NCBI GenBank assembly: GCA_030645735.1
Contig: JAUSNP010000001.1
Span: 7,502-71,501 of the forward strand
Reading direction: 5' to 3'
Source: Candidatus Moraniibacteriota bacterium
Lineage (GTDB): Bacteria > Patescibacteriota > Minisyncoccia > Moranbacterales > UBA2206
Length of the DNA stretch: 64,000 bases
Below, in pieces: positions 3 through 48,047 of this stretch. The notes under the pieces were generated by a model that saw nothing but the letters and a program-made list of their open reading frames with translations, made no database searches and was not told the origin of the DNA. Positions within the stretch are counted from its first letter, which is position 1. Each line of letters opens with the position of its first letter. A program made the position numbers and the translations under genes.

Positions 3-3000
3 GTTGAGACCCCAATTGTGGAAACTGAAGTGGTTGTCCAAAAAGCAGAGTCTGTTACGGAAGCTCCAATTGTGGAAGAGACCCCTGCTGTAGTCGAAGA
101 TGTGACTGCGTCTATTGAAGAAAATTCAACGAACACTGTTTCAGAAGAGCAACCAGCATCAGTTGTGGAAACAGAAGTAATCGACGATACAGCAACTTCA
201 GAAGTTGCTCCTGTTAGCCCAGTTGTTGTGTCAGAAGCGCCAAAAGAAATTTGGGCAAAAGATGGCGACAAGGCCGTGACCAAAGAAAATGTTGAACTTG
301 GGAAAACATATGTAGCGCCACAAAATAAAGATGTGACCGTGACTTTCACCAAGCTTCCAGAAACTTCTGGCAAACTTTCGATTGAAGAAATAACTTTGAC
401 CAATGAGCAAGTTGCAACTCTTGGCGCACTTTCCAACAAAGCCTATGACATAACTTCAACTATGGAGAATGGAACCTTTGAATATGATTTGACCATGCCA
501 AAAGTTGTAAACAAAGCATCGGGGATTTCATATATTGAAAAATCAGCAGATGAAGTTGATTCAATTAAAAAAGAAGAAATCAAGTCAATTGAAGAAAATG
601 TCACAACGACAAAAGACAATATCAAGGCCGAAGATGTTGATCATTTTACAATTTTTGTTGTAGTTGAATGGAATTTTCCTGATACTCCTGGTGATGCAGT
701 TGCAGATGGAGGAGTTGCGATGAATGCAACCGCGACCGTAACAGTACAAGGAGGATCAACAATAACAGGATATGGAGCAGTTGGTGCAACAACATACTCA
801 GCCAGGGCAAATGACTGGAACAGCGGATCTGGAATAAAATTTTGGAGAATAATGTTTGATTCTACAGGATTTAAAAATTTGAAAATTTCATCAAAACAAA
901 GAAGTTCAGCTACTGGACCAAGAGATTTTAAAATGCAATACAAAATAGGTGCGGGAGGAACATGGACGGATTTCGGTCCAAGCAGTATCACAGTAGCAGA
1001 TAATTTCTCAGGTGGAGCTGTTAGTGATATTTCGCTACCTTCAGATGCAGACAATCAACCTGATGTAAGAGTGAGATGGATCATGACTTCCAATACCGCA
1101 GTTAATGGATCACCGGTGGCAGCTGGAGGTGCTAGTAATGTAGATGACATTATTGTAACTGGAGATGATGATATGACTCCGCCGACTTTGAATCTTCCTG
1201 CAGATATAACAGCTGAAGCAACTAGTTCAAGTGGAGCTACAGTTTCTTTTTCTGCAACTGCTGATGATTTAGCTCCAGCCCATCCGATTGTAACATGCAT
1301 TTCTCCGTCAGGCTCAATATTTTCATTTGGAACAACAGTTGTAAATTGTAGCGCAACTGATGCTACAGGGAATGTTGCGAATGGATCGTTCAATATTACT
1401 ATTCAAGACACAACTGCACCGACTGTTCCGGTAAATGGTGTTCCGAACGCAACTCACATTCCAATGAATAATTTTGATTTTGATTGGGATGATTCATTTG
1501 ATGCATCGACTGTGACATATGAATATCAAGCAACAATGGATCCAACTGAAGTTGGAGGAGTTTTGACAAATGGTCTTTGGAATTCTGGAATTTTGCCAGC
1601 GTCAACAATTCACTCTGCTGGAGCACCTGACGGAACTTGGTATTGGCAAGTTCGTGCGATTGATTCGCTTGGGCAGACAAGTGCCTGGAGTTCAATTTGG
1701 GATGTTACGCTCGATACCCAAGCTCCAGTAATAACTTTGGATGGTGCCAATCCACAAATTATTGAAGGTGGGACAGGTTCAGTATATACAGAGTTGGGAG
1801 CAACCGTTAGTGACAATATTGATTCAGGGCTGACTGCGACAATTGATGCTTCAGCTGTGAACACAATGGCAGTTGGTTCATATCTAGTGACATACAATGT
1901 TTCTGATCAGGCAGGAAATGCTGCCACTCAAGTGACCAGAACAGTGAATGTTGTTGATACCACTGCACCGGTGATTAGTGGAGTGACAAATCAAACTGTT
2001 GAAATGGACAGTGTTTCAGGTGCGATTGTGACCTACGGCATTACTGCTGTGGATGCAATGGACGGACCATTGCCAGTTAATTGTGTGCCAGTTTCAGGTT
2101 CAGTTTTCTCTTATGGAACAAGTTCGGCAATTTGCAGTGCGACTGATGCTGATGGAAACAATGCAACTGCATCATTCAATGTGACAGTCGTGGACACGAC
2201 CGGGCCAATAGATGTTTCAATTGCATATTCTCCGATTGATTTTTCAAACACATCATCAGTGGATGTTACATATTCAATTGGTTCTGATTTTTCTGCTCTT
2301 AATTTGGCAACAGGAAGAATTCAAAAAAGAACTGGAGATGTTTCTGGTTCAGCCTGTGTGAATTGGGGGACTTGGACAAATCTTGTTTATGAAACAGATG
2401 GAAGTTATACAGACAGTTCTATTGCAGATGGAAAATGTTATCGCTATCGCTATGCAATCAAAGATAATGTCGGCAATCAAAGTATTAGCGTGGTGGCAGG
2501 CACAGTGAAAATTGATCAGTCTGCCCCAGTCATTAGTGGCTTTGGTGATATCGTCATTGAAGCAACAAATCCAGCCGGAGATGTGGCAAATTTCAATCCG
2601 ACAGCGGTGGACAATGTAGATGGAAGTGTGTCTGTTGTTTGCGTACCTGTTGCTGGTTCAGTTTTTGCAATCGGAACGACCACCGTGTCTTGCGAAGCTG
2701 AAGATTCTTTAGGCAATAAATCAATCGAAACATTTGTAGTCACAGTGCAAGACACAACGGCACCGACAATTGATAATGTTTCAGATATAATCGAAGAAGC
2801 TACTAGCCCAGCGGGAGCAGCGGCAACATTTGTTGAACCGATGTCTCACGATGCTGTTGATGGTGATTTGATTGCGACTTGCGATGCAGTTTCAGGCGCG
2901 ACATTCGCCTTGGGCGTAACAATTGTTACCTGCACAAAAACAGACTCAGCCGGAAACGTAGCAACTCCAGAAACATTTACCATAACAGTTCAAGATACAA

Positions 3001-5186
3001 CGGCGCCGGTCATCGCGCTCAATGGTGATAATCCGCAAACAGTCGAAAGAAAAGAGGCCTATGTCGAAGCTGGTGCAAATGTGACTGACAATTATGACAC
3101 AGCATTAGTTGTGACAATTGATGCCTCAGCTGTGGATGTGAATGTGGCGGGCACATATTCGGTATATTATGATGTTACTGATACGGCAGGAAATCCAGCT
3201 GTTCAAGTTGTACGAACAGTGAATGTGACTGATACTATTGATCCAGTGGTGACTTTTGATGACGAGACAAATCCGGCAGATGGATTGCTAACATCGAATG
3301 CCAATCAGACATTTGCAATTACCGTGGATGAAGATGTGGCAACTTGCCAATTGAATTTTGGAGCATCAACTGTGACAACAGCCACCTCTCAAATAACCTG
3401 GAATCATAGCTTCCCAGAAGACACCAATGGATCTTGGCATTTTTATTCACCAGCTGGAACAGATTATGCTTTTCCAGATCGATATGCTAACGCTGGTCCA
3501 GGAGGAAATTCATGGGTTGCGCCAGTCGTGTATGATATGAGCTCAGCCTTTGCCGGAGAGCAGATGGGTGGAACCTGGCAACTATTGATGAATGACCATG
3601 TGGGTTGGGATAGTGGCGCGATTACAAATGTAGATTTGATTTTGAATGGTCAGAATTATTCATGGAACGGTTGGGCAGGGATTTGGGATTACAGCACTAC
3701 AACTGTAGACATCCCTGTCGCCGGAGGTAGCGGTGGGCCATCGAGTGGCGTGTATGATATGACAGTTGTTCATGATGGCGATTCTGCCACAGCCTCAGTG
3801 AATCTACCTGCAATTAGTGATGGCGTGTATGAATATACGGTGACTTGCTCTGATTTGAGTGATAATGAGGGGACATCAGAAATTAGAGATATCACAATAG
3901 ACACGACTGCGCCTAGCCTTTCAGCCAAAACAACATTTGAAGGCTGGTATAATACAGACCAAACTTCGGTATTTAATTACATGGACATAAATGGAATCGC
4001 ATCGGGTGATAATCCGGAATGTATTATTTCAACGGAAGGTGTGGGACAAACGTGTTCAGTTGTTCCGAATGTTTGTGATGTTGTCGGAAATTGCAATACT
4101 GACGAGGTGGTTTCAAACGGTGCTGACATTGATAAATCCAATCCGGAAGTAAGTGCCGGGATGGACAAACAAACAAACGCAGAATTTATGCAAGACGCCA
4201 CTGCCTCAGATTCAATAAGCGGAATTGCTACATATGCATGGACACAAGAATCTGGGCCGGGGAGTGTGACATTCGGAGCTTTTGATGCAGAAGATTCTAC
4301 GGTTTCAGCTGATGTTGACGGAACCTATGTTATTAGATTGACGGTGACTGACAATGCTGGCAATTCGTCTTTTGATGAATTCACCTTGATTTGGGACACG
4401 ACAAAGCCGGTCATAACTCGCACAGGGAATGATCCAATTATCATTGAATATGCTGGAACATATACTGAGCAAGGAGCGACTTGGACTGATGTTATCGATG
4501 GCGCTGGAAACGCGACAGTCGGCGGTGACACAGTCGACACGTCAGCTCTAGGCACTTATATTGTAACCTATGATTATACTGATGTAGCTGGCAATTCAGC
4601 TGAGCAGGTTACACGCACAGTCAAGATTGTTGACACAACTGCTCCAGTAGTGACTCTAAATGGTGGTGATGTATCTTTCAGACGCGGACACACTTATCAT
4701 GAACAAGGAGCGACTTGGACAGATAATGTAGATGGCAGTGGTAATGTTGTGACCATAACTGGAACAGTTAATGAAAATAGAAGAGGTACTTATTATCTGA
4801 CCTATTCATATATTGATTCGTCAGGCAATGAGAGCTCAATAGTCAGAAAAATAGTGGTTAAAAAACAAAGCGCCAATGACAACGGTGGCGGTGATGGAGG
4901 AAACAACGCTGATGACACTCAAGGCATAGCTGGTCCATCCATAGGTGGCGGAGCTGGCGCTGATGAAGAAACAACTACTGGCGAAAATGCTGGAGAGGAA
5001 AGCATAGAGAATGCTGGCACTGAAAATGGCGGACAACCGGAAGTCAAGGGTGCGGAAAGCGGGCAGGTTTTGGGTGAAGAAATATCAGCTGAAGAAGATG
5101 GCTTCTGGAATTTCAGTTGGTGGTGGTTGTTAATATTTGTACTGGCTGGGCTTGGACTATATCGCATAACTAGGCGAAAAATATAG
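3..5186 (+). CDS. Giant cell-surface protein, 5'-truncated at window edge; repeated HYR/Ig-like (VxDTTAPxI) modules, DUF5011-like Ig domains, proprotein-convertase P-like domain, Gly/Asp/Glu-rich linker and C-terminal TM anchor (WWWLLIFVLAGLGLYRITRRKI)
   Basis: Uninterrupted 1722-aa ORF running into the window start; about 10 repeats of the DTTAP-x-I motif spaced roughly 80-100 aa apart; hydrophobic C-terminus followed by RRK. Confidence 0.7.
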   Translation, partial: VETPIVETEVVVQKAESVTEAPIVEETPAVVEDVTASIEENSTNTVSEEQPASVVETEVIDDTATSEVAPVSPVVVSEAPKEIWAKDGDKAVTKENVELGKTYVAPQNKDVTVTFTKLPETSGKLSIEEITLTNEQVATLGALSNKAYDITSTMENGTFEYDLTMPKVVNKASGISYIEKSADEVDSIKKEEIKSIEENVTTTKDNIKAEDVDHFTIFVVVEWNFPDTPGDAVADGGVAMNATATVTVQGGSTITGYGAVGATTYSARANDWNSGSGIKFWRIMFDSTGFKNLKISSKQRSSATGPRDFKMQYKIGAGGTWTDFGPSSITVADNFSGGAVSDISLPSDADNQPDVRVRWIMTSNTAVNGSPVAAGGASNVDDIIVTGDDDMTPPTLNLPADITAEATSSSGATVSFSATADDLAPAHPIVTCISPSGSIFSFGTTVVNCSATDATGNVANGSFNITIQDTTAPTVPVNGVPNATHIPMNNFDFDWDDSFDASTVTYEYQATMDPTEVGGVLTNGLWNSGILPASTIHSAGAPDGTWYWQVRAIDSLGQTSAWSSIWDVTLDTQAPVITLDGANPQIIEGGTGSVYTELGATVSDNIDSGLTATIDASAVNTMAVGSYLVTYNVSDQAGNAATQVTRTVNVVDTTAPVISGVTNQTVEMDSVSGAIVTYGITAVDAMDGPLPVNCVPVSGSVFSYGTSSAICSATDADGNNATASFNVTVVDTTGPIDVSIAYSPIDFSNTSSVDVTYSIGSDFSALNLATGRIQKRTGDVSGSACVNWGTWTNLVYETDGSYTDSSIADGKCYRYRYAIKDNVGNQSISVVAGTVKIDQSAPVISGFGDIVIEATNPAGDVANFNPTAVDNVDGSVSVVCVPVAGSVFAIGTTTVSCEAEDSLGNKSIETFVVTVQDTTAPTIDNVSDIIEEATSPAGAAATFVEPMSHDAVDGDLIATCDAVSGATFALGVTIVTCTKTDSAGNVATPETFTITVQDTTAPVIALNGDNPQTVERKEAYVEAGANVTDNYDTALVVTIDASAVDVNVAGTYSVYYDVTDTAGNPAVQVVRTVNVTDTIDPVVTFDDETNPADGLLTSNANQTFAITVDEDVATCQLNFGASTVTTATSQITWNHSFPEDTNGSWHFYSPAGTDYAFPDRYANAGPGGNSWVAPVVYDMSSAFAGEQMGGTWQLLMNDHVGWDSGAITNVDLILNGQNYSWNGWAGIWDYSTTTVDIPVAGGSGGPSSGVYDMTVVHDGDSATASVNLPAISDGVYEYTVTCSDLSDNEGTSEIRDITIDTTAPSLSAKTTFEGWYNTDQTSVFNYMDINGIASGDNPECIISTEGVGQTCSVVPNVCDVVGNCNTDEVVSNGADIDKSNPEVSAGMDKQTNAEFMQDATASDSISGIATYAWTQESGPGSVTFGAFDAEDSTVSADVDGTYVIRLTVTDNAGNSSFDEFTLIWDTTKPVITRTGNDPIIIEYAGTYTEQGATWTDVIDGAGNATVGGDTVDTSALGTYIVTYDYTDVAGNSAEQVTRTVKIVDTTAPVVTLNGGDVSFRRGHTYHEQGATWTDNVDGSGNVVTITGTVNENRRGTYYLTYSYIDSSGNESSIVRKIVVKKQSANDNGGGDGGNNADDTQGIAGPSIGGGAGADEETTTGENAGEESIENAGTENGGQPEVKGAESGQVLGEEISAEEDGFWNFSWWWLLIFVLAGLGLYRITRRKI

Positions 5187-8981: not shown

Positions 8982-9534
8982 AAGAAAAATAAACATCAAT
9001 GGTAAAGACATTGAATATGTCTTCAAGCGAACCAAGGGCTCTAAGAGCGTGAAGTTGGCAGTTTATGCTGATGGGCGCTTTGTCGTTTCGGCGCCAAAAT
9101 GGTATCCTATGTATATAGTTAAAAAGTTTATTGAAGAAAAGTCACAGTGGATTTTTGAGCGCGTGAAGGACATTGATTTTGACCTGATTGGTCAGAAACA
9201 AAAAGCAGAAAGCGCGGATTATAAAAAATCAGTGAAGTTGGCGCGAGCCATCATTCATGCGCGATTGGAATTTTTCAACTGTCATTACAATTTTCAGTAT
9301 AATCGTGTGGCGATCAAGAATCAGAAGACCTGTTGGGGGAGTTGTAGCCAGAAAGCCAATTTGAATTTCAACTATAAGATTATCAATTTGCCGGACGAGA
9401 TGCGTGACTATGTGATTGTGCATGAGCTGTGTCATTTGCAAGAATTGAATCACAGTAAAAGATTTTGGAATCTAGTTTCGCAGACCGTGCCGAATTATCG
9501 AACTTTGCGAAGAAAATTAACAGAAATAAAATAA
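8974..9534 (+). CDS. YgjP/DUF45-family metal-dependent hydrolase (HExxH, SprT-like)
   Basis: YVIVHELCHLQELNHSKRFW motif; start chosen at MDKRK to avoid overlap with the upstream gene. Confidence 0.75.
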   Translation: MDKRKININGKDIEYVFKRTKGSKSVKLAVYADGRFVVSAPKWYPMYIVKKFIEEKSQWIFERVKDIDFDLIGQKQKAESADYKKSVKLARAIIHARLEFFNCHYNFQYNRVAIKNQKTCWGSCSQKANLNFNYKIINLPDEMRDYVIVHELCHLQELNHSKRFWNLVSQTVPNYRTLRRKLTEIK

Positions 9535-9540
9535 TAAAAA

Positions 9541-9616
9541 ATTGTCATTCCCGTGGAAACGGGAATCTAGTATCTAAGCTTTGTGACTAGATTCCGGCTC
9601 AAGGCCGGAACGACAT
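9541..9616. mobile_element. MITE-like palindromic element, copy A (TIR tgtcattcccg ... ccggaacgaca)
   Basis: About 75 bp of nested hairpins (cattcccgtggaaacgggaatc) near-identical to the copy at 12478-12560. Confidence 0.55.
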
Positions 9617-9625
9617 AAAACAAAT

Positions 9626-10543
9626 ATGAATTACATTGTTCTCGCCACGGTTGCATATTTTATGGTCGCTTTAGAAGTTATCCTAGATAAATTTTTGCTA
9701 AGCTCTAAGCGAATTTCTCATCCAGCCATCTATGCCTTTTATTCTGGTCTTTTGACCGCTTTTGTATTTTTCATGGTGCCATTTGGTTTTCACACGATGA
9801 CGCCATATTTTGCCATGGTGAGCATCGTGACAGGAATTATTTTTACTTATGGATTCTTGACCTTATTTTTTGCTATCAATAAAAGTGAAGCTAGTCGAGT
9901 GATGCCAGTGGTTGGAGCGGTTGTGCCATTGGTGACATTTGTTCTTTCTGGTAGTTTATTATCTGAATATTTAAATGGAGTGCAATTGGCCGGAGTGTTA
10001 GCTTTGATTGCTGGTGGACTTCTGATTTCTTTTGATTTTCCATTGAAAAACAAGAAGAAATTTTTTCATGGTTTTTATTATTCAATTTTGGCGGGTATTC
10101 TTTTTGCCATCGAAGTCACTTCTTTCAAATATTTGAGTGATAATTATACTTTTGCCAATGTATTTATCTGGACGCGCTGGGGTGTGACCTTGGGAGCGTT
10201 GAGTTTGTTGCTCATTCCTCATTGGAGAAAAGTCATTTTGAATTCTTTCGGTAGTTTCAAAAATACTAAAAAAGAACATCATCAGACTGGAGGACTTTTT
10301 ATTTTGAATAAAGTTTTGGGTGGCGCTGGATCAATTCTAACCAAAAAAGCTATCACTTTGGGTAGCGCGACCGTAGTGAGTGCCTTGGTTTCGACTGAAT
10401 ATGTTTTTATTCTATTGATTGGTTTGGTGATGTCATTCCATTTCCCAAGAATTTTCCAAGAGAAAGAAGATGTTTTAGGCATAACGCAAAAAATAGTTTC
10501 AATTTTGATTATTTCGCTAGGCGTAGTTCTCATATCTCGTTAA
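9626..10543 (+). CDS. Multi-pass (about 10 TM) membrane protein, DMT/EamA-like transporter
   Basis: Hydropathy pattern of two 5-TM halves; weak family assignment. Confidence 0.45.
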   Translation: MNYIVLATVAYFMVALEVILDKFLLSSKRISHPAIYAFYSGLLTAFVFFMVPFGFHTMTPYFAMVSIVTGIIFTYGFLTLFFAINKSEASRVMPVVGAVVPLVTFVLSGSLLSEYLNGVQLAGVLALIAGGLLISFDFPLKNKKKFFHGFYYSILAGILFAIEVTSFKYLSDNYTFANVFIWTRWGVTLGALSLLLIPHWRKVILNSFGSFKNTKKEHHQTGGLFILNKVLGGAGSILTKKAITLGSATVVSALVSTEYVFILLIGLVMSFHFPRIFQEKEDVLGITQKIVSILIISLGVVLISR

Positions 10544-10562
10544 AAATAAAATTCAATATAAA

Positions 10563-11579
10563 ATGGAGATTATAAAAAAAATATTAAAAGTCATCGGAAT
10601 AATCCTGCTGAGTTTGTTTGGATTTATTCTGATAATGTTCGGCTATTTCAATCTACCGGCAGAAAATAATAACGATGGTGCCAAATTGGGCATGACTTTT
10701 TCCAGCACCTATTCATCCAGCATGGGTCTGGATTGGAAAGCTAATTATATCGCGATGTTGGATGATTTGCACATCAAAAAAATTCGCATTCCAGTTTATT
10801 GGGACATGGTAGAAATCAAAAAAGGCGATTATGATTTTTCGGATGTGGATTGGCAATTGAATGAGGCTCGGAAAAGAAACGCTGAAATTATTTTAGCTAT
10901 CGGTCAGAAAACTCCGCGTTGGCCAGAATGCAATGTTCCACAGTGGGTGAAAGAAGATGAGCAAAATAGAAAAGAAAGTCTTTTGGAATATGTGGCTGTT
11001 TCTATGAATCGCTATAAAAATGATCCAGTAGTGAAATATTGGCAAATCGAAAATGAACCATTTTTGCCATTTGGTATTTGTCCCAAACCGGACGCCAGTC
11101 TTTTGGACAGCGAATTGGCAGTGGCGCGCTCAATCGACAATACACGCCAAATCATAGTGACTGACAGTGGCGAATTGAGTTTGTGGGTGCAAGCGGCCAA
11201 GCGCGCCGACATTTTTGGCACCACGATGTATCGAACAATTTATAAAAAAGGCCTTGGCTATGTTGAATATCCAATCGGACCAAGATTTTTTCAATTCAAG
11301 CATGCAATAATCAAGCTGTTTGCGCACCAAAACAACGCCATTGTCATTGAACTGCAAGCCGAGCCATGGATCATGGGTTCTACAATAGATAATACATTGG
11401 AAGAACAATTCAAATCTATGAATCCAGAACAACTAGTGAGCAATGTTGAGTATGCCGAGAAAGTTAATTTCCCGCAGATATATTTATGGGGCGTGGAATG
11501 GTGGTATTGGTTGAAAGAAAAGCAAAATCATCCAGAACTTTGGAATACGGCGCGTGACCTATATCTCAATCGACAATAA
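10563..11579 (+). CDS. Membrane-anchored clan GH-A glycoside hydrolase (GH5/GH113-like)
   Basis: N-terminal TM; WQIENEP acid/base motif and ELQAEPW candidate nucleophile in a (beta/alpha)8-like spacing. Confidence 0.5.
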   Translation: MEIIKKILKVIGIILLSLFGFILIMFGYFNLPAENNNDGAKLGMTFSSTYSSSMGLDWKANYIAMLDDLHIKKIRIPVYWDMVEIKKGDYDFSDVDWQLNEARKRNAEIILAIGQKTPRWPECNVPQWVKEDEQNRKESLLEYVAVSMNRYKNDPVVKYWQIENEPFLPFGICPKPDASLLDSELAVARSIDNTRQIIVTDSGELSLWVQAAKRADIFGTTMYRTIYKKGLGYVEYPIGPRFFQFKHAIIKLFAHQNNAIVIELQAEPWIMGSTIDNTLEEQFKSMNPEQLVSNVEYAEKVNFPQIYLWGVEWWYWLKEKQNHPELWNTARDLYLNRQ

Positions 11580-11801
11580 ACTTCCAAGAATTGAAAATAC
11601 GGCTAAAGACCACCTTTAAGAAGGGCGGTCTTTTGTTGCTGATCTGAATTAAGTTGACTCCTAGGGGCAAATTTGACCTCATAAGCTATCTGAGGGCTCA
11701 GCAACTGCCTTCGTTGGTTTTGGAATAAGTTTTGTTTATGGTACTATTTTGTTAGAGCCTGCTCATAATCTCATGTCTAGATAAATAGTATCTTTTCTTT
11801 T

Positions 11802-12470
11802 ATGTCTCGGGTTATTGTAGATATTGAAACAATTGGCAAGGATTTTGCGAGCTATGACCAAAAAAGTCAGGAGTATCTTTTGAAATATGCGCAGACTGAG
11901 GAGGAGCAGGAGGCAGTCAAAAAAAGTTTGGCCCTGCATGCTCTGACGGGCGAGGTGGTGACTATCGGTATGCTCAATCCTGACACGGGCAAAGGCGTGA
12001 TGCTCTTTCAAAGCAAGGGTGAAGTCATTGAGGATTTTTCCGAAGATGGACTTTTCTATGAAGCTGGCACAGAGAAAGAGTTATTGGAAAAATTTTGGGA
12101 CATGGTGAAGACATACAAGCAAATAATCACTTTCAATGGTCGCAATTTTGACATTCCGTTTTTGATGACACGCAGTGCCATCAATGGCGTGCGAGTGTCG
12201 CGCAACTTCATGGGCTATCGCTACAATCCGAAAGAACATTGTGATTTGATGGAGCAATTGACCTTCTATGGGGCGACTCGCAAATTCAATCTGGATTTTT
12301 ATGCCAAATCCTTCGGCATCAAGAGTTCCAAAGATGAAGGCATCGACGGTTCGATGGTAGGTGAGTTGTATAAACAAAAGAGATATTTGGATGTGGCGCG
12401 CTATTGTCATCGTGATCTTCTGACAACCAAAGGTTTGTATGAATATTGGGATAAATATTTGAGTTTTTAG
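11802..12470 (+). CDS. Predicted 3'-5' exonuclease, RNase H-like fold (COG3298, related to the PolB exonuclease domain)
   Basis: N-terminal VIVDIETIG (Exo I DxE) motif; length about 220 aa. Confidence 0.55.
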   Translation: MSRVIVDIETIGKDFASYDQKSQEYLLKYAQTEEEQEAVKKSLALHALTGEVVTIGMLNPDTGKGVMLFQSKGEVIEDFSEDGLFYEAGTEKELLEKFWDMVKTYKQIITFNGRNFDIPFLMTRSAINGVRVSRNFMGYRYNPKEHCDLMEQLTFYGATRKFNLDFYAKSFGIKSSKDEGIDGSMVGELYKQKRYLDVARYCHRDLLTTKGLYEYWDKYLSF

Positions 12471-12477
12471 AATTAGC

Positions 12478-12560
12478 ATTGTCATTCCCGTGGAAACGGG
12501 AATCCAGTCACACAGCATTAAGTTTCTACACTAGATTCCCGCCTACGCGGGAATGACAAA
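12478..12560. mobile_element. MITE-like palindromic element, copy B (perfect TIR ttgtcattcccg ... cgggaatgacaa)
   Basis: 12-bp terminal inverted repeats plus internal hairpins; its 3' TIR provides the ATG at 12553. Confidence 0.6.
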
Positions 12561-12567
12561 TAAAAAA

Positions 12568-14612: not shown

Positions 14613-14620
14613 ATATTTTA

Positions 14621-14722
14621 TAACTCGTAACTAGTAACTCGTAACTAGTAATTGGAGCGTCATCTTATTAATTGGCTTATTTATAATCTATGCTAGTTAC
14701 TGATTACCAGTTACTAGTTACT
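14621..14722. promoter_or_regulatory. Two inverted arrays of 7-nt repeats (taactMg)x4 forming a ~24-bp stem around a 40-nt loop in the infC-rpmI spacer; candidate L20 autoregulatory or processing structure
   Basis: taactcgtaactagtaactcgtaactagtaa ... ttactgattaccagttactagttac are reverse complements of each other. Confidence 0.45.
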
Positions 14723-14726
14723 TGTT

Positions 14727-15283
14727 TTATACTTCTGGCGTTAGCACTGCATTAAAGCCACTGGGATATCTTTTCACTTCCTGATCAAGCTTATAAGGGA
14801 CAGTGATGATTTTCAAGAAATCTTCAAGGTTCTTTCGGGCTAGATCTTGGTGAGCTTTTTCTCGGCCACGCAAGAAAATTTCAACTTTCACTTTCTGACC
14901 TTTTTTGAGAAATTTTTCAGCCATATCTTTCTTGACTTCCAAATCGTGAGTGTCAGTTCGGAAACCAATACGAATTCCTTTGACATCAATTTTTTTCTGT
15001 TTGGCTTTGTTAACTCGATCAAGTCTGGATTGTTGATATTGATATTTGCCATAGTCCATGATTTTGCAAACCGGCGGCTTGGCCATCGGTGCAATTTCCA
15101 CTAGGTCCAAATCTTGTTCGCGAGCAACTTGCAAGGCATCAAACGGAGTCATGACTCCAAGTTGATTTCCCGCATCGTCGATTACGCGAATTTGTGGAAC
15201 CCTAATGTATTCATTTATTCTGGTAAGCGGACCTTTTTTTACGAACGGCCGCTTGGTTGGTACTCTTCTAATAGTTTTGATAT
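14727..15283 (-). CDS. infC: Translation initiation factor IF-3 with a non-ATG start (probably AUA/AUU)
   Basis: The ATG-ORF begins at MTPFDAL, but the conserved N-domain (RINEYIRVPQIRVIDDAGNQLGV) lies upstream in frame; an in-frame stop sits at 15287-15289. Confidence 0.85.
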
Positions 15284-15296
15284 TAATTATTATTTG

Positions 15297-15708
15297 TGGA
15301 GATGGCGAGAATCGAACTCGCGTCCAAAATCATTCATCTAAAACAATCTACAAGCGTAGTCTATCCGTTTGATTCGATTAAAAAGTGGAGGATAGACAAA
15401 ACCTTTTCAATCTATTGCTAATGTAGTTTTATCGAAGTGACTTAGAAAATATCAGATCGACTATCCTGATGTTTTGACACCGAGATCCATCTATCAGGAG
15501 TTGATGGTTCGATGACTACTGCGATAAGGCCTGTAAGGCGATATTTAGGCAATAGCAACCGCAAAATTTGAAGTAAATGCTTGCGCAAATACTGATTTCG
15601 CTTTTGTTATGAAGTTTGCACTTATAACTTTGATACAAATTTAACGAGTAATTATCATCCTCGGCTTGCATATTTTAAACGTACGACCTGTCGAAACCAA
15701 ACATCCCC
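15297..15708 (-). ncRNA. ssrA: tmRNA (SsrA), about 412 nt
   Basis: 5' end GGGGATGTTTGGTTTCGACAGG (tmRNA consensus GGGGnTG...GGnTTCGAC); 3' tRNA-like end GGACGCGAGTTCGATTCTCGCCATCTCCA; candidate tag reading frame ending ...SNFAVAIA-taa; immediately adjacent to smpB. Confidence 0.85.
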
Positions 15709-16250: not shown

Positions 16251-17840
16251 ATGAAAAAACAATTGGCAGAAATCATCAAAAAAGCTGTTTTGGAGCTGTT
16301 CGACCTTGAACAAGCTGATTTTGCTGTGGAATATCCGAAAGACGAGAAATTTGGGGATTATGCGGCCAATGTGGCGATGGTTTTGGCCAAAAAGTTAGGG
16401 AAGAGCCCAATTGAGATTGCTGAGGCAATCAAGTTACAAGTTACAAGTTACAAGTTACAAACTTTTGAAAAGATTGAAGTGGTGGCGCCGGGGTATATCA
16501 ATTTTTATTTGTCAGAAAAATATTTGCAGGATGTTGTGGTTGAGATTCAAGACAAAAAAGAAAAGTTTGGAGAAAGTGAAATTGGTAAAGGCGTGAAAAT
16601 AAACAATGAATTTATTTCAGCCAATCCAACAGGCCCTTTGACGGTGGGGAATGGTCGTGGAGGATTTTGTGGTGATGCAATTTCTCGTGTGCTTCGAAAA
16701 ACTGGATTTGAAGTCGTGAATGAATATTATATAAACGATGCTGGTGGACAAGTCTTGAAATTGGGGCACAGTGTGTTGAAAGATGAAGAAGCTGCCTATA
16801 CTGGAGAATATATTGATGAGCTGAATAAAAAATATGGCGAGCTGACTGATGTAAAAGAAATTGGTCAATTAGCAGCCAAGGAAGTTTTAGAGAATATCAT
16901 CAAAAAAGTAGTTGTAGAAAAAATGCAGATTTCTTTTGATGTTTGGATGAGTGAGAAAAAAATTCAAGATGAAAATTTTGTTGAAAGGTCTATTGAAATT
17001 TTGAAAGAAAAAAAGCTGACCTATGAATCAGAAGGTGCTTTGTGGTTGAAGACGACGAAATTCGGTGATGATAAGGACCGTGTGCTGATAAAGAGTGATG
17101 GGCAGAAATCATATTTTGCTGGTGACTGTGGCTATATGTTAAACAAGATTGAAAGAAATTTCAGTCGCTTGATTATGGGGTTGGGTGCGGATCATCATGG
17201 TTACATTTCCAGATTGCGTGCCGTAGCCAAAGCCTTAGGGTTTGAAGGTGATTTTCGTTTTGTGATTTCACAATTAGTACGCATCATGAAAGATGGCAAA
17301 GAAGCTAGGATGAGTAAACGCGCTGGCAATGTTGTGAATGTTGATGAGCTGATTGATGCAGTTGGATCGGATGTAACTAGATTTTTTTTCTTGATGTATT
17401 CACCCGATACTCATATGAGTTTTGATTTAGGCTTGGCGGAAGAGAAATCACAGAAGAACCCAGTTTTCTATGTGCAATATGCGCATGCTAGGATTTGTAG
17501 TGTTGTGCGCAAAGCGCAAGATTCAATAACCAAGATACAAGATACAAATAATGTTGATTTATCTTTGCTTAAAGATGAAAAAGAATTGAGTTTGATTCGT
17601 GAACTGAATAAGTTTCCAGAATTGGTGGAAGAACTTTCTCAAAGTTATGAGGTTCACAAGCTTCCATATTTTGCTATTAAGTTGGCTGATAAATTTCATT
17701 CTTTCTACAATGCTTGTAAGGTGATTGATGAGGAAAATTTGGAATTGACCAAAGCGCGTTTGAATTTGATAACTGCAGTGAAGATTGTCTTGGCAGAAAC
17801 TTTGGATTTGATTGGGGTGAGTGCGCCGGAAAAGATGTGA
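16251..17840 (+). CDS. argS: Arginine--tRNA ligase
   Basis: HHGYISRLRAVAKALG, RMSKRAGNVVNV (KMSK-type), and the C-terminal DALR anticodon-binding region. Confidence 0.95.
   Translation: MKKQLAEIIKKAVLELFDLEQADFAVEYPKDEKFGDYAANVAMVLAKKLGKSPIEIAEAIKLQVTSYKLQTFEKIEVVAPGYINFYLSEKYLQDVVVEIQDKKEKFGESEIGKGVKINNEFISANPTGPLTVGNGRGGFCGDAISRVLRKTGFEVVNEYYINDAGGQVLKLGHSVLKDEEAAYTGEYIDELNKKYGELTDVKEIGQLAAKEVLENIIKKVVVEKMQISFDVWMSEKKIQDENFVERSIEILKEKKLTYESEGALWLKTTKFGDDKDRVLIKSDGQKSYFAGDCGYMLNKIERNFSRLIMGLGADHHGYISRLRAVAKALGFEGDFRFVISQLVRIMKDGKEARMSKRAGNVVNVDELIDAVGSDVTRFFFLMYSPDTHMSFDLGLAEEKSQKNPVFYVQYAHARICSVVRKAQDSITKIQDTNNVDLSLLKDEKELSLIRELNKFPELVEELSQSYEVHKLPYFAIKLADKFHSFYNACKVIDEENLELTKARLNLITAVKIVLAETLDLIGVSAPEKM
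16439..16469 (+). repeat. 7-nt tandem repeat (agttaca)x4, in-frame in argS
   Basis: caagttacaagttacaagttacaagttacaa encodes KLQVTSYKLQ. Confidence 0.8.
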
Positions 17841-38667: not shown

Positions 38668-40170
38668 ATGACGAAAGATTACATCATTGATCAACTGAAA
38701 AAACAAATCGAAAATTTTGAAACTTTGACGCAGACTGAAAAAGTCGGAACTGTAGTTGAGGTGGGCGATGGTGTGGCCAAAATCTCTGGCCTGTCAGATG
38801 CCATGGCTTCTGAAATGTTGGAATTTCCAGGCGGCGTGTTTGGAGTGGCCTTGAACTTGGAAGAAGGTGCAGTGGGTGCCATGATTTTAGGTGACTACAC
38901 TGGCATCAAGGAAGGCGACATCGTGAAATCAACTGGCAAAATTTTGTCAGTACCGGTGGGCGATATGATGATTGGGCGAGTAGTGAGTCCGTTGGGCGTG
39001 GCGATTGATGGCAAAGGTGAAATCAAATCCGAAACATATTATCCAGTAGAAAAAATTGCGCCGGGAGTTATTACGCGAAAATCAGTGAGCGTGCCAGTAC
39101 AAACTGGTATCAAAGCCATTGACGCTGTGATCCCAGTTGGACGTGGTCAACGAGAATTGATCATTGGTGACCGACAAACTGGAAAAACTGCCGTGGCCAT
39201 CGATGCTATCATCAATCAAAAAGGACAAGACTTGATTTGTATTTATGTCGCCATTGGACAAAAGGAATCTAAGATTGCAAGAATTGTAGCTGAATTGGAA
39301 AAGCGCGGAGCAATGGAGCACACTATTATGGTGGTGGCCGGAGCTTCAGATCCAGCGGCGTTGTCATTTATTTCTCCATACGCCGGTTGTGCGATGGGTG
39401 AATATTTCTTAGACAAGGGGAAAGACGTTTTGATTATCTATGATGATTTGTCAAAGCATGCTTGGGCATATCGCCAAATTTCTTTGATTTTGCGAAGACC
39501 ACCAGGACGTGAAGCCTATCCTGGAGATATTTTTTATTTGCATTCCCGACTTTTGGAGCGTTCAGCGCGTTTGAACGAAGATTTTGGTGGTGGTTCAATC
39601 ACAGCTTTGCCAATCATTGAAACTCAAGCCGGTGATGTGTCAGCCTACATTCCGACCAATGTGATTTCTATTACTGACGGTCAGATTTATTTGGAAACTG
39701 ATCTTTTCTACAAGGGTATACGACCAGCTTTGAACGTTGGCTTGTCAGTTTCTCGTGTGGGATCAGCCGCGCAAACTAAAGCTATGAAAAAAGTGGCTGG
39801 CAAGTTGCGACTCGATTTGGCGCAGTTCCGTGAATTGGAAGCTTTTGCGCAATTTGGTTCAGACTTGGATGAGAATACCAGAAAGCAAATCGAAAGAGGA
39901 CGACGCACTATTGAAATTTTGAAACAAGACCAATATGAGCCGATGCCAATGCAAAACCAAGTAGCAATTTTGTATGCATTGACCAATGGTTTCTTGGATG
40001 ATGTGGTGGTGGAAAAGGTGAAGGCTTGGGAAAATGATTTCCACAAATATTTGCAATCTAGTGCCAAAGAAACTTTGGAATTGATCGCGAGCAAAAAAGA
40101 ATTGGCAGAAGATGTGGTGGCGAGTTTGGAGAAAGCAATTAAGGAGTTTAAAGAAACTTATCAAAGCTAA
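38668..40170 (+). CDS. atpA: ATP synthase F1 alpha subunit
   Basis: Walker A GDRQTGKT; highly conserved. Confidence 0.97.
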
Positions 40171-40174
40171 AATA

Positions 40175-40323
40175 TGTCATTGCGAGCGTAGTATCGGCGA
40201 CTGAGCCGATACGAAGCGTGGCAATCTCATGCAATAATTCACAGAATTTAATGTAAGGTACAGTGAATTAAAATATGAGATTGCCACGGTCGTTCCGCGG
40301 CGGAACTTCCTCGCAATGACAAA
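40175..40323. mobile_element. ~150-bp nested palindromic MITE-like element filling the atpA-atpG spacer (TIR tgtcattgcgagcg ... ctcgcaatgacaaa)
   Basis: 14-bp terminal inverted repeats plus internal inverted pairs (tatcggcgactgagccgata; gtggcaatctcat/atgagattgccac; gttccgcggcggaac). Confidence 0.6.
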
Positions 40324-40332
40324 GAAAAAAAT

Positions 40333-41286
40333 ATGGCTAGTACACGCGATATTCGTAGACGTATAAAATCAGTAGGGAACACCCAAAAAATCACTCGAGC
40401 AATGGAGATGGTTTCAGCTGCCAAGATGAGAAAATCTGTGGCGAGTGTTTTGGCGGTGCGACCATATGCGCATGCGGCCTGGAGCGTGTTGACCAATCTT
40501 TCACGGGCTTTTGAAAAAAATCATGCTGGTCTTTTGGAAGTGCGTGAGGTGAAAAATGTTTTGGCCATCGCCATAACTTCCAACAAGGGTTTGTGTGGGG
40601 CTTTCAATGCGCAAATTATCAAAAAAATCAAAGACGAAATTGCCAATCCAGAAAGATTGAGCATCAATCGAGTGGGCAAAGAAAAACTTGGCATCAAAAA
40701 CAAGAACATCAAGATTGATTTTATCACCATTGGAAAGAAGGGTGAGGCGGTGGTGCGCAAAGCTGGCAAGGATATTATTGCATCTTTCAATGAGTTGACC
40801 TATTTGCCAAAAATTGACGATGTGCGCGTCGTGGGCAAGGTTGTGACAGAAGATTATCTAGCCAAAAAATATGACAAGGTGGTGGTTTTCTATACTGACT
40901 ATGTTTCGGCTATGAGTCAGCAAACAAAAGTTCGCCAGATTTTGCCAATTTCTAAAATTGATTTGGAGAAACAAATTGCCGAGATGGATGTGTTGGCCAA
41001 AGAATATGGCTTGGATGCGCCAGTGCGAGAATACAAAGTTGAGCCCAATCCTGAGTCAGTGTTGGAATATATTTTGCCTCGCTTGATCGACATGCAAATC
41101 TATCACGCGATTTTGGAATCAAACGCTGCCAAAGAATCAACTCGGATGATGGCCATGAGAAGCGCGACTGATGCAGCTGGAGAAATGAAGGATGACCTGA
41201 CATTTGTATATAATCAGATTCGGCAGATGAAGATTACACAGGAGATTGCAGAGATTTCAGCCGGACGTGCTGCATTGGAAAATTAA
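40333..41286 (+). CDS. atpG: ATP synthase F1 gamma subunit
   Basis: MASTRDIRRRIKSVGNTQKITRAMEMVSAAKMRK. Confidence 0.92.
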   Translation: MASTRDIRRRIKSVGNTQKITRAMEMVSAAKMRKSVASVLAVRPYAHAAWSVLTNLSRAFEKNHAGLLEVREVKNVLAIAITSNKGLCGAFNAQIIKKIKDEIANPERLSINRVGKEKLGIKNKNIKIDFITIGKKGEAVVRKAGKDIIASFNELTYLPKIDDVRVVGKVVTEDYLAKKYDKVVVFYTDYVSAMSQQTKVRQILPISKIDLEKQIAEMDVLAKEYGLDAPVREYKVEPNPESVLEYILPRLIDMQIYHAILESNAAKESTRMMAMRSATDAAGEMKDDLTFVYNQIRQMKITQEIAEISAGRAALEN

Positions 41287-45176: not shown

Positions 45177-48047
45177 ATGGAAAGCTATAATCCCAAGGAA
45201 ATTGAGGCAAAATGGCAAGAGAAATGGCTTGAACAAGCCTCAGAGAAGATTGATAAGGACGATACTAAGAAGAAATTCTATATTTTAGATATGTTCCCAT
45301 ATCCGTCTGGCACTGGCCTGCATATGGGACACACCGAGAGCTACACGGCGAGCGATGTTTTCTATCGTTTCAAAAAGATGCAAGGTTTCAATGTTTTGCA
45401 TCCACAAGGTTTTGATGCTTTTGGTTTGCCAGCAGAAAATTATGCCATCAAAACTGGCGTGCCACCGATTGAAACGACCAAGAAGAACATGGAGAATTAT
45501 ATTCGCCAAATGCAGTCTTTAGGTTTCAATTATGATTTTTCGGAGCAGGCTATCACGAGTGATCCAGAATATTATAAATGGACGCAATGGATTTTTTCCG
45601 AGTTTTATAAAAATGGTTTAGTCTATAAAAAAACCCAAAAAACAAATTGGTGTGCTTCTTGTCAGACTGTCATTGCCAATGAGCAAGTGGTAGAAAACAA
45701 ATGTGAACGATGTGGCACAGAAATTGAACAAAAAGAAGTGCCGACTTGGTTTTTCAAAATCACAGACTTTGCTGAAGAACTAATTGCTGATTTGGACGAT
45801 GTTGATTGGCCGGAATATACTAAGAAGAATCAGCGAGCGTGGATTGGTAAAAGTGAGGGTGCTGAAATTAAATTCGAAATTCGAAATTCGAAATCCGAAA
45901 CAAATTCAAAATCAGAAAAACAAAATACAAAACAATTTATCGAAGTATTTACTACGAGAGTGGATACGGTTTTTGGCGTGACTTATGTTGTGGTGGCTCC
46001 AGAACATCCATTAATCGCGCAACTTGAATCGCAAATCGCAAATCGCGATGAGATTTTTGCATACATTGAAAAATCAAAAAACAAAACAGAACTAGATCGA
46101 ATGGAAGCCAAGGAAAAAACGGGTGTAGAGCTTGAAGGTATTAAGGCTGTCAATCCATTCAACGGCGAAGAAGTTCCAGTGTTTGTGGCTGATTATGTTC
46201 TTGGAAGCTATGGCACCGGCGCCGTGATGGCTGTGCCAGCACATGATGAAAGGGATTTTGAATTTGCAAAGAAATATAATTTACCGATTAAAAAAGTTAT
46301 TGAACCATGTTTTGACCAACTTGCCGAGCCAGGAAAAATTAAATGGGACGAGGCATTTGTTGAAAGGGATGCAATCTTAGCCATAGTTAAACATTGGGAA
46401 AAAGATGAGTATCTATGCCTTCAGTGGAAAAAGGTTGACTGGAGAACTTTTATTACTGGTGGACCGGAAGGCGGTCAGTCTTTTGAAGAAGCGGCAAGAA
46501 CGGAAATTTTAGAAGAGACTGGTTATAAAAACTTGAAATTAATTAAAGAGCTACCAATGGTGCATAGTCGCTTTTATCATGTACCAAAAAAAGTGAACCG
46601 ATTTGCTCATTTCAATGTTTTCTATTTTGAGCTAAAGGACGGCGATAAAGATAATATTTCAGATAATGAGCAAGAAAACCACGATACTGTTTGGGTAATG
46701 AGTGACAAAATTGAGCAATTTTTAACTGCCGATTCGCATAAATATATTTTTAAAAATTTAAATAACCCAGAAGTCTCTTTTGTAGAAGATGGAGTATTGA
46801 ATAATTCTGGAGAATATAATTTTTTGACTTCCGAACAAGCGCGGGGAAAAATGACAGCTTGGTTGGAAGAAAAAGGTTTGGGCAAAAAAGTTGTGAATTA
46901 TCGTTTGCGTGATTGGTCAATTTCACGGCAGAGGTATTGGGGTTGTCCGATTCCGATTGTGTATTCACCGGAGGGTGAACCGCATTTGGTTCCAGAGCAA
47001 TATTTGCCATGGAAATTGCCGGAGGATGTTGATTTTGTGCCGACCGGAACTTCACCTTTGGCCAAGTCGCAGGAACTCAAAGAAAGAGTGGAAAAAATTT
47101 TTGGAGAATGTTGGACAGCTGAGTATGATACGATGGACACCTTTGTGGATTCGTCGTGGTATTTCTTGCGCTATCCGGATGTGCACAATGACAAAGAATT
47201 TTGTTCACAAACAAGAAAGGCTTGGTTGCCGGTGGATATGTATATCGGCGGTGCAGAACACACCTACATGCATCTTTTGTATGCCAGATTCTTTGTGAAA
47301 GCTTTGCACAAAATTGGACACTTGAGTTTCAATGAGCCATTTTTGAAATTGCGTCACCAAGGCATGGTCTTGGACAAGGCTGGCAACAAGATGTCCAAGT
47401 CCAAAGGCAATGTCATCAATCCGGATGAAATGGTAGAAAAATTTGGCGCGGATTCCGTGCGTATGTATATGATGTTTGTGGCACCGTTGGAAGATGCGGT
47501 TATGTGGAACGAAGAAAATATTGTGGGTGTGCGCAGATTTTTGGAAAGAGTTTGGCGCTTGCAAGAAAAAATTGTAGTTGAAAATATGGTAGTTGATTCG
47601 CTGACACACAAGACTATCAAAAAAGTTGGTGAAGATGTTGAAGTGATGAAATTTAATACAGCTATTTCCCAGATGATGATTTTGGTTAATGCGATGGATA
47701 AAGAAAAACAGATATCAGTTACGAGTTACGAGTTACTAGTTACTATTCTAGCTCCATTTGCTCCGCACATGGCCGAAGAAATTTGGAACAAGCTTGGGCA
47801 CTCAGAAAGTATTTTTTCCTCAGCTTGGCCGGAGTATGATTCCGAATTGATCAAGGATGAAAAAATAAAATTGGTGATTCAGGTGAATGGCAAAGTGCGA
47901 GACACAATTGAAGTTAATGCTGAAATTTCAGAAGATGAGGCAAAAAAAGTTGCACTTGAAAGTGAAAAAATAAAAAATTATATTTCAGGCAAGGAAATCA
48001 GAAAAATAATTTATGTTAAAAACAAACTAGTGAGCATCGTCGTTTAA
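45177..48047 (+). CDS. leuS: Leucine--tRNA ligase with a ~150-aa NUDIX-like domain inserted between the CP1 editing domain and the catalytic core
   Basis: HMGH, KMSKSKGN and editing-domain TTRVDTVFGVTY all present; inserted segment AILAIVKHWEKDEYLCLQWKK...TGGPEGGQSFEEAARTEILEETGY fits a NUDIX fold/box. Confidence 0.95.
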   Translation: MESYNPKEIEAKWQEKWLEQASEKIDKDDTKKKFYILDMFPYPSGTGLHMGHTESYTASDVFYRFKKMQGFNVLHPQGFDAFGLPAENYAIKTGVPPIETTKKNMENYIRQMQSLGFNYDFSEQAITSDPEYYKWTQWIFSEFYKNGLVYKKTQKTNWCASCQTVIANEQVVENKCERCGTEIEQKEVPTWFFKITDFAEELIADLDDVDWPEYTKKNQRAWIGKSEGAEIKFEIRNSKSETNSKSEKQNTKQFIEVFTTRVDTVFGVTYVVVAPEHPLIAQLESQIANRDEIFAYIEKSKNKTELDRMEAKEKTGVELEGIKAVNPFNGEEVPVFVADYVLGSYGTGAVMAVPAHDERDFEFAKKYNLPIKKVIEPCFDQLAEPGKIKWDEAFVERDAILAIVKHWEKDEYLCLQWKKVDWRTFITGGPEGGQSFEEAARTEILEETGYKNLKLIKELPMVHSRFYHVPKKVNRFAHFNVFYFELKDGDKDNISDNEQENHDTVWVMSDKIEQFLTADSHKYIFKNLNNPEVSFVEDGVLNNSGEYNFLTSEQARGKMTAWLEEKGLGKKVVNYRLRDWSISRQRYWGCPIPIVYSPEGEPHLVPEQYLPWKLPEDVDFVPTGTSPLAKSQELKERVEKIFGECWTAEYDTMDTFVDSSWYFLRYPDVHNDKEFCSQTRKAWLPVDMYIGGAEHTYMHLLYARFFVKALHKIGHLSFNEPFLKLRHQGMVLDKAGNKMSKSKGNVINPDEMVEKFGADSVRMYMMFVAPLEDAVMWNEENIVGVRRFLERVWRLQEKIVVENMVVDSLTHKTIKKVGEDVEVMKFNTAISQMMILVNAMDKEKQISVTSYELLVTILAPFAPHMAEEIWNKLGHSESIFSSAWPEYDSELIKDEKIKLVIQVNGKVRDTIEVNAEISEDEAKKVALESEKIKNYISGKEIRKIIYVKNKLVSIVV
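45869..45938 (+). repeat. 7-nt tandem repeat (aaattcg)x4 decaying into aaaNNca heptamers, in-frame in leuS
   Basis: aaattcgaaattcgaaattcgaaatccgaaacaaattcaaaatcagaaaaacaaaatacaaaacaa. Confidence 0.75.
46026..46050 (+). repeat. 7-nt tandem repeat (aatcgca)x3, in-frame in leuS
   Basis: gaatcgcaaatcgcaaatcgcgatg. Confidence 0.7.
47716..47745 (+). repeat. 7-nt tandem repeat (agttacg/agttact)x4 in-frame in leuS; reverse complement of the infC-rpmI spacer array
   Basis: cagttacgagttacgagttactagttact. Confidence 0.8.

Follow-up and report, generated by a model that had tools for sequence, protein, structure and literature searches.

Repetitive extragenic palindromic (REP) sequences of the CGTC-tagged group are short hairpins with stems of 8-9 bp that nearly always start with an A-T and a T-A pair, loops of 4-5 nt and short tails (PMC3733652). 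Members of the family CGTC-1, which includes dRS3 of Neisseria and RPE-6 of Rickettsia, carry an unpaired terminal CGTC tag, with TGTC and CCTC as accepted variants, and a tail with the consensus CCA, reach high copy numbers in a genome, and are found mainly as head-head (HH) dimers, in which the tags lie outside; heterodimers are known among these but homodimers predominate (PMC3733652). REPs sit mostly downstream of open reading frames (ORFs) and may act as RNA, and a dedicated transposase of the CGTC-tagged REPs was not found by Di Nocera et al. (PMC3733652). About half of the dRS3 copies have been redefined as the oriented NTS, with the consensus CGTCATTCCCGCGMAVGCGGGAATCYRG, and this was generalised to the SRMs (Ssn-related motifs), described by the pattern HGTCWYN(0-2)YYVSBRHN(0-5)WNVSBRGN(0-2)RNCYNB (Chenal et al. 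2025, PMC11893778). In many phyla SRMs flank genes for SsnA, a GIY-YIG protein of ~94-95 aa with a single domain (cd10448), which binds the hairpin only when it is single-stranded DNA (ssDNA), with the cut placed a few nucleotides upstream (5') of the tag (PMC11893778). The Ssn proteins of Neisseria and Wolbachia bind the hairpin, the tag and the C after the stem, the GTC before the palindrome mattering most for cleavage and the C after it most for binding, and in Neisseria Ssn affects transformation (PMC11893778). Here, we analyze two palindromic elements, copies A and B, in a 64-kb stretch of DNA (contig JAUSNP010000001.1, hereafter the window) from Candidatus Moranbacteria, members of the Candidate Phyla Radiation (CPR), and find that, judging by their sequences, both are tags-out HH heterodimers of CGTC-tagged REP hairpins of the family CGTC-1, the same family as dRS3, NTS and SRM.

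Copy A (9543-9615) and copy B (12480-12558) each comprise two hairpin arms of ~30 nt, inverted relative to each other and with the tags outside. The arm plan common to both copies is (T)GTC, then a stem of 8 bp (ATTCCCGN) with a loop of 4-5 nt, and finally C-YAG. When the copies are aligned in both orientations, they consist of a left arm, (T)TGTC-ATTCCCGT-GGAA-ACGGGAAT-C-YAGT, a spacer of ~13-21 nt and an inverted right arm (the spacers are 21 and 29 nt in A and B, respectively, by the arm definition used for the pair counts given below). The features are as follows.

9532..9615, no strand assigned: whole inserted segment of copy A, 84 nt, missing from the empty site of the closest relative; TAA(A) is present at both edges, which leaves an ambiguity of 3-4 nt in its position.
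9543..9570, + strand: left arm of copy A, TGTC, stem ATTCCCGT/ACGGGAAT, loop GGAA, C-TAG; nhmmer E=3e-10; DNA hairpin of -7.8 kcal/mol.
9587..9615, - strand: right arm of copy A, diverged, TGTC-GTTCCGGC-CTTGA-GCCGGAAT-C-TAG; found with a relaxed pattern and missed by the rigid profile hidden Markov model (HMM); -8.1 kcal/mol.
12471..12567, no strand assigned: whole inserted segment of copy B, from the stop codon of the upstream Exo gene to the start of the SpoU gene, 97 nt as against 0-1 nt at empty sites.
12480..12507, + strand: left arm of copy B, TGTC-ATTCCCGT-GGAA-ACGGGAAT-C-CAG; profile HMM E=4.9e-11.
12531..12558, - strand: right arm of copy B, TGTC-ATTCCCGC-GTAG-GCGGGAAT-C-TAG; the only arm that satisfies the published SRM pattern.
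12553..12567, + strand: in-frame upstream ATG and four codons, made by the copy B right arm and its flank.

The left 27 nt, ATTGTCATTCCCGTGGAAACGGGAATC, show no difference between the copies. In three of the arms the stem is ATTCCCGN/NCGGGAAT and the loop GGAA or GTAG; the right arm of copy A (GTCGTTCCGGC CTTGA GCCGGAAT) has a 5-nt loop, two compensatory stem changes (C-G to G-C and T-A to C-G) and a first pair weakened to G.T, and still forms a hairpin. The tails are C-CAG or C-TAG, and the GTC tag and the C after the stem are kept in all four arms. Sequence and folding both bear out two palindromic copies of ~80 bp in short intergenic gaps, at the positions where a preliminary description of this DNA had placed them, as well as the terminal inverted repeat (TIR) that it had reported as perfect over 12 bp in copy B (TTGTCATTCCCG / CGGGAATGACAA) and degenerate in copy A, and the internal hairpins; the 30-nt arms of copy B are complementary at 83% of positions. 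Since each of these 'TIRs' is itself a complete hairpin repeat unit, the element is not one unit bounded by terminal repeats but a dimer of two repeat units. Both as RNA and as DNA, the folds of whole copies and of single arms are much more stable than those of shuffled sequence, with z-scores of -5 to -8.7, and the 20-nt core ATTCCCG-N6-CGGGAAT is found three times in the window, where 0.14 occurrences would be expected by chance. No arms beyond the four were detected in the window using the SRM regular expression, a relaxed regular expression and the profile HMM; the last of these missed the copy A right arm, so that very diverged copies could escape detection. Searching the whole window at the Rfam gathering thresholds returned nothing at the elements, the sole match being the tmRNA gene at 15294-15708 (- strand; RF00023, 164.7 bits), which adjoins smpB.

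The assignment to CGTC-1 follows the published description of that family. The tag is TGTC in all four arms, stems, loops and tails agree with the family except for the G.T first pair and the 5-nt loop of the copy A right arm, and both copies are tags-out dimers. The SRM pattern is matched by one arm (12531-12558, minus strand), as against 0.05 matches per window by chance, and in a hand alignment the left arms depart from it at a single loop position, with G where H is required. REP-type repeats had been named in the preliminary description as an alternative to a mobile element; this is the correct classification, and being REP-type and being mobile are not mutually exclusive.

The arms are widely distributed in bacteria. 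The loci with arms compared here number ~240, being the matches listed in IMG/VR and GTDB. The pattern GTCATTCCCG-N6-CGGGAATC is present in at least 120 IMG/VR stretches with G+C contents of 32-72%, and the exact 24-mer that includes the loop seen in the window (TGGAAA) in at least 119 stretches from at least 15 phyla in GTDB, taken as one genome per species. According to the record titles, the hosts of the 24-mer include Nitrospirota, Pseudomonadota, Thermodesulfobacteriota, Chloroflexota, Bacteroidota, Cyanobacteria, Acidobacteriota, Planctomycetota, Leptospirales, Atribacterota, Cloacimonadota, Binatia, Parcubacteria, Saccharibacteria and Peribacteria. Among the matches listed, the most frequent loops are CGCAGG, CGAAGG and CGAAAG and the most frequent tail is CAG or TAG; tags-out is the top arrangement of adjacent arm pairs (44 of 73 in GTDB and 46 of 93 in viral stretches), tags-out dimers with spacers of 15-60 nt are the commonest pairing, and the spacers in GTDB loci are mostly 19-49 nt long. 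The base before GTC in 162 arm flanks of other genomes is C in 92 and T in 63, and a search of 81 non-redundant HH dimers for a target motif or a target-site duplication (TSD) revealed only a pyrimidine preference at -1 to -3. Separately, one side of many HH dimers adjoins a common motif of ~20 nt, GAC(T)TTTTACGA..CCATCA (L127, L152, L156, L190, L202, L209, L210, L212, L226 and L234), in metagenome-assembled genomes (MAGs) of 'Deltaproteobacteria', Thermodesulfobacteriota and Nitrospirota, which suggests a larger composite repeat or a preferred target.

Both copies fill short gaps between genes on the + strand, copy A between a gene for a YgjP-like metallopeptidase (ending at 9534) and an EamA gene (starting at 9626), and copy B between a gene for a PolB-exonuclease-like protein of the RNase H fold (Exo, ending at 12470) and a SpoU methyltransferase gene. 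With the Exo protein as query, a scan of metagenomes found 65 related loci, many of them syntenic. In close relatives the two junctions are empty, with a YgjP-EamA gap of 7 nt and an Exo-SpoU gap of 0-1 nt. The closest relative, L242, whose Exo is 98% identical in amino acids and which shares cluster members with Ca. Moranbacteria GW2011_GWA2_39_41, reads ...ATAAAA, then TAAAACAAAT, then ATG at junction A, and TAG-G-ATG at junction B. Aligned at junction A, the window has ...ATAAAA, the gained segment TAATAAAAAAT-TGTC...GACA and then TAAAACAAATATG, as against ...ATAAAA directly followed by TAAAACAAATATG in L242, and a blastn alignment of the two breaks at 9540/9615 and 12473/12568. Junction B is likewise empty (0-1 nt) in L243, L273, L244-246 and L251, and an orthologous copy B with the same flanks is present in L298. 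By parsimony, the elements were gained by insertion, copy B in the lineage of the window and L298. The gain at A is of 84 nt, made up of an AT-rich left flank of 11 nt and the 73-nt dimer, and its edges show TAA(A) microhomology; that at B is of ~96 nt, the 79-nt dimer with 9 nt of AT-rich, non-conserved flank on each side. By exact sequence, proteins of the window are found in an NCBI MAG labelled Candidatus Moranbacteria bacterium (MDO8240366-MDO8240376). Contigs of the Logan assembly of run SRR13727526, which is of the same DNA, break at both elements (L001 covers 9581-12507 and L122 runs from 12481), the behaviour expected of repeats.

Other elements are seen at these junctions in the relatives. 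Small, unrelated palindromes are present at the two junctions, for example GTCGGTCGCGACCGAC (L246:3297-3344) and CATTGGATGTCCAATG (L247:984-1022), a TACGAA-type palindrome occupies the Exo-SpoU junction in L266 (5902-6005), and a GIY-YIG gene directly follows Exo in L262 and L289. The two gene junctions look like recurrent landing places. The GIY-YIG genes of L262 and L289 were considered as Ssn candidates and rejected, as they look like members of a different subfamily (YhbQ/UPF0213-like) on inspection of their motifs, with one weak T5orf172 match, and have no adjoining arms.

The insertion polymorphism, together with the terminal inverted repeats, the small size, the intergenic sites and the REPIN-like pairing of two inverted hairpins, is also what one would expect of a classical miniature inverted-repeat transposable element (MITE), with TIRs that serve as binding sites of a DDE transposase, of an IS200/IS605 Y1 transposase or of a RAYT, and it was as a mobile, MITE-like element that the preliminary description had introduced the copies. 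The mobile part of that proposal gains from the filled and empty sites, which reveal insertion into compact junctions. A private MITE of two copies with a simple TIR does not stand, because the CGTC-tagged REP/dRS3/NTS/SRM family, of which each end is a unit, is pan-bacterial. The TIRs are there, but the comparison of filled and empty sites shows no clear TSD at A or B; beyond the TAA(A) microhomology at A there is an imperfect A-rich repeat, TAAAAAAT / TAAAACAAAT, which is no convincing TSD because it is indistinguishable from low complexity. The tag is YGTC as opposed to the GTAG of RAYTs, for which the survey that found no dedicated transposase of CGTC-tagged REPs (PMC3733652) is also pertinent. 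Clustering of the ORFs within 300 nt of the arms in the ~240 loci gave no Y1 transposase family, and the small ORFs of the window that were tested are ATP-synthase subunits, a rhodanese, RecO or unannotated, with no transposase among them, so that the suggested IS200/IS605 partner is missing from both sets; the recurrent neighbour of the arms is instead the ~100-aa GIY-YIG protein Ssn. A classical MITE, already weakened as an explanation, thus appears highly improbable.

Parts of copy B have been conserved since its insertion. Between the window and L298, third-codon divergence is 0.32 in SpoU and 0.24 in the tail of Exo, and ~13-14% of the positions of the copy B element differ. All of these differences fall in the left flank, in the spacer or in the two loops and the pairs that close them; no change is seen at the 36 positions made up of the four stem halves of 7 bp, the two GTC tags and the two C's that follow the stems, for which simple arithmetic gives a chance of ~3e-6 at a rate of 0.3 and of ~0.004 at the mean rate of the element. 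Such conservation of stem and tag reflects either purifying selection or homogenisation by other copies.

Conservation of the arms after insertion would also fit a host hairpin acting at the RNA level, as a terminator, an attenuator or a stabiliser of mRNA 3' ends, with mobility being incidental. As RNA, the elements form very stable folds (-32 to -45 kcal/mol), the genes on either side of each copy are co-directional, and the predominance of REPs downstream of ORFs, with a possible action as RNA (PMC3733652), points the same way. However, neither element is followed by a T-run on the coding strand, the sequence there being A-rich instead, and the sole terminator-like match is on the - strand, in the copy A left arm. 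The unpaired GTC and the post-stem C, which are perfectly conserved, matter for Ssn and not for an RNA hairpin, the junctions of 0-7 nt in the relatives work without a hairpin, and the identical 24-mer recurs in at least 15 phyla in unrelated contexts. We therefore regard a primarily RNA-level role as unlikely.

Unbiased clustering of the ORFs found within 300 nt of the arms yielded a small GIY-YIG family and an IS110-like family. With respect to the former, profile searches place Ssn-type ORFs adjoining arms in L004, L047, L093, L109, L137, L141, L150 and L190, and GIY-YIG ORFs (Pfam PF01541) lie within ~80 nt of arms in L109, L137, L150, L190, L047 and others. In L109 and L137 the order is arm, gene and inverted arm, with the tags out, and the downstream arm begins directly after the stop codon. 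In L150 a ~100-aa Ssn-type gene is likewise flanked tags-out, by a degenerate upstream arm and a downstream arm identical to the left arm of copy B. The protein of L150 is recorded under both Parcubacteria and Ca. Moranbacteria names and has at least 8000 matches at E<=1e-10, many of them from the CPR. Ten of its close homologues held at NCBI were checked, of which two have accessions (MDD5464427.1 and HAV11423.1/KKT93192.1), neither in the accession range of this MAG (MDO82403xx), and eight have none; the exact protein is present in other groundwater samples and not in SRR13727526. In L261, which belongs to the clade of the window, an Ssn-like gene with the variant hairpins GTCATTCCGAGCG... 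and GTCATCTCGAGC... on its two sides adjoins the Exo orthologue.

The IS110-like family bears on another explanation, in which the main role of the hairpins is that of a landing site for site-specific recombinases of the IS110/Piv type, comparable to the role of dRS3 for the filamentous prophages of Neisseria; integration of Nf phages at dRS3 is described in literature cited by PMC11893778. Of the 10 viral loci that have an IS110-like ORF (317-341 aa), 8 have it at a distance of 137-480 nt from arms, and most of these have dense, Neisseria-like clusters of arms (the viral loci with IS110-like ORFs of 323-341 aa near arms are L003, L018, L020, L024, L068, L076, L080 and L119). There is, however, no IS110-like ORF in the window or in the CPR relatives, and a role as a target leaves the arrival of the dimers at two compact junctions unexplained. 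We consider the chance that the elements are principally landing sites to be very slight.

Taken together, the observations are likely to be best explained by CGTC-1 REP heterodimers that inserted into Ca. Moranbacteria, with their spread plausibly linked to Ssn. In the mechanism that we propose, an arm exposed as ssDNA would fold into a hairpin (stem of 8 bp, loop of 4-5 nt) with the YGTC tag left unpaired on its 5' side and the C-YAG tail on its 3' side, and would be recognized by an Ssn homologue, presumably encoded in this genome. The dimer may be a gene-less derivative of an SRM-ssn-SRM arrangement, in which the tags-out orientation was kept and the nuclease gene of ~300 bp was replaced by a spacer of 20-30 nt. 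By analogy with REPIN/RAYT, the dimers would be mobilised by Ssn, spreading via ssDNA intermediates with the nuclease supplied in trans. As the arms of an HH dimer lie on opposite strands, two cuts upstream of the tags could bracket the unit, which fits the few variable nucleotides co-inserted on each side of B. At its present sites, the dimer would mark the DNA for cleavage by Ssn whenever it becomes single-stranded, and it may also give the polycistronic mRNA a stable hairpin, with a possible side effect at the RNA level.

Several observations weigh against this interpretation. Movement of these repeats by Ssn is put forward by the authors of PMC11893778 as no more than a hypothesis. A profile search of all ORFs of the 64-kb window found no GIY-YIG (Ssn-type) ORF. 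The distance from GTC to the edge of the insertion is 9-10 nt on either side of B and 0-4 nt on the right of A, with no obvious match to the published position of cleavage. The strict NTS consensus of Neisseria, CGTCATTCCCGCGMAVGCGGGAATCYRG, is matched by none of the four arms, and the SRM pattern by only one. Finally, arms are sparse in the clade: the 64 kb of the window contain two dimers and 404 kb from relatives only ~3 loci with arms, as compared to hundreds of copies in Neisseria. The stronger proposal that the tags-out SRM dimer is the transposing unit of an ssDNA mobile system driven by a GIY-YIG nuclease (Ssn) and active in the CPR is put forward as a tentative possibility. If it holds, the pairs of filled and empty sites would be its natural footprints (a whole dimer, in B with variable flanks of ~9 nt, and no TSD), and the perfect conservation of stem, tag and tail would mean upkeep by the host or by the nuclease.

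The insertion of copy B has probably also affected the annotation of the downstream gene. The ATG at 12553, which the preliminary description had derived from the right arm of copy B, does lie within that arm, in frame with SpoU, and is the start used by NCBI (166 aa, MDO8240369.1). But the orthologues start at the position of 12568: all SpoU orthologues at empty sites begin with MKGKELYII at the ATG equivalent to it, and a second gene caller places the start there as well (161 aa). Going by these sequences, the true start of SpoU is probably 12568, that at 12553 having been mis-annotated through the insertion.

The window contains other repeats. A third palindromic element, of 147 nt, lies at 40175-40321 between the ORFs 38668-40170 and 40333-41286 of the ATP-synthase gene cluster. 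Its TIR of 12 bp is perfect (TGTCATTGCGAG / CTCGCAATGACA), and it has nested hairpins with a DNA fold of -46 kcal/mol (z-score -10.6) and a TGTCATT terminus in common with A and B. The arms represent a second type of hairpin in a form with a long loop, GTCATTGCGAGCG-(AAG)-CG(A/T)(A/G)GCAATCTC; this type (GTCATTGCGAGCG/GCAATCTC) is present in at least 120 IMG/VR stretches, and no GIY-YIG ORF was found in 122 loci that carry it. At L288:2918-2977, and in identical sequence at L290:133-192, the loop of one arm (TGTCATTCCCGCGCC...GCGGGAATCCAG) is enlarged by an insertion of 37 nt, and a further hairpin, GGGTG.CACCC, is nested there; the loops of the arm family can thus host extra structure, as in the 40175-40321 element. 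Upstream of the IF3 gene, at 14619-14729, are inverted arrays of the 7-nt unit CGTAACT/AGTAACT, with 33-nt arms that are 82% complementary, and similar arrays occur at 16432-16459 and 47716-47744; the TACGAA-type palindrome of L266 is comparable to them, and they are possibly another intergenic repeat family. The ORF at 462-5186 (1574 aa) has internal diverged repeats ~1.3 kb apart (families D1, D7 and D8) and probably encodes a repeat-domain surface protein.

The analysis extends the family of Ssn motifs to the reduced genomes of Candidatus Moranbacteria in the CPR and indicates that 'MITE-like' palindromes of this kind ought to be annotated as CGTC-REP/SRM dimers. The clean pairs of filled and empty sites show the HH dimer to be inserted whole, with no duplication of the target, and to be conserved afterwards.

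In comparison with known systems, NTS and SRM share with A and B the core ATTCCCG...CGGGAAT, the GTC tag linked to cleavage and the post-stem C linked to binding, and the arms described here differ from NTS in having T for C at position 1, a different closing pair and a different loop. In those systems the ssn gene is typically flanked by the motif, whereas none is present in the 64-kb window, and the role shown in Neisseria is restriction of transforming ssDNA. REPIN/RAYT resembles A and B in that two inverted hairpins form a larger hairpin and the dimer is the unit of insertion, without TSD, and resembles SRM/Ssn in that the gene of the enzyme, present as a single copy, is itself flanked by the repeats. 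The tag is GTAG in REPIN/RAYT as against YGTC here, and the enzyme is an HUH/Y1 transposase as against a GIY-YIG nuclease; Ssn is not known to carry out strand transfer. With respect to the CGTC-1 REPs themselves, the survey of 2013 covered phyla outside the CPR and found mostly homodimers, unlike the heterodimers of Ca. Moranbacteria, where the copy number is also apparently low (two dimers in 64 kb); the right arm of copy A differs as well, in its 5-nt loop and its G.T first pair. Shared features are the TGTC variant of the tag, the 8-bp stem with an AT start, the 4-nt loop, the short unpaired tail, and the HH dimers with spacers of 20-100 bp between co-directional ORFs. Beyond their CPR host and their insertion footprints, copies A and B are not a new MITE but an ordinary instance of a described repeat family.

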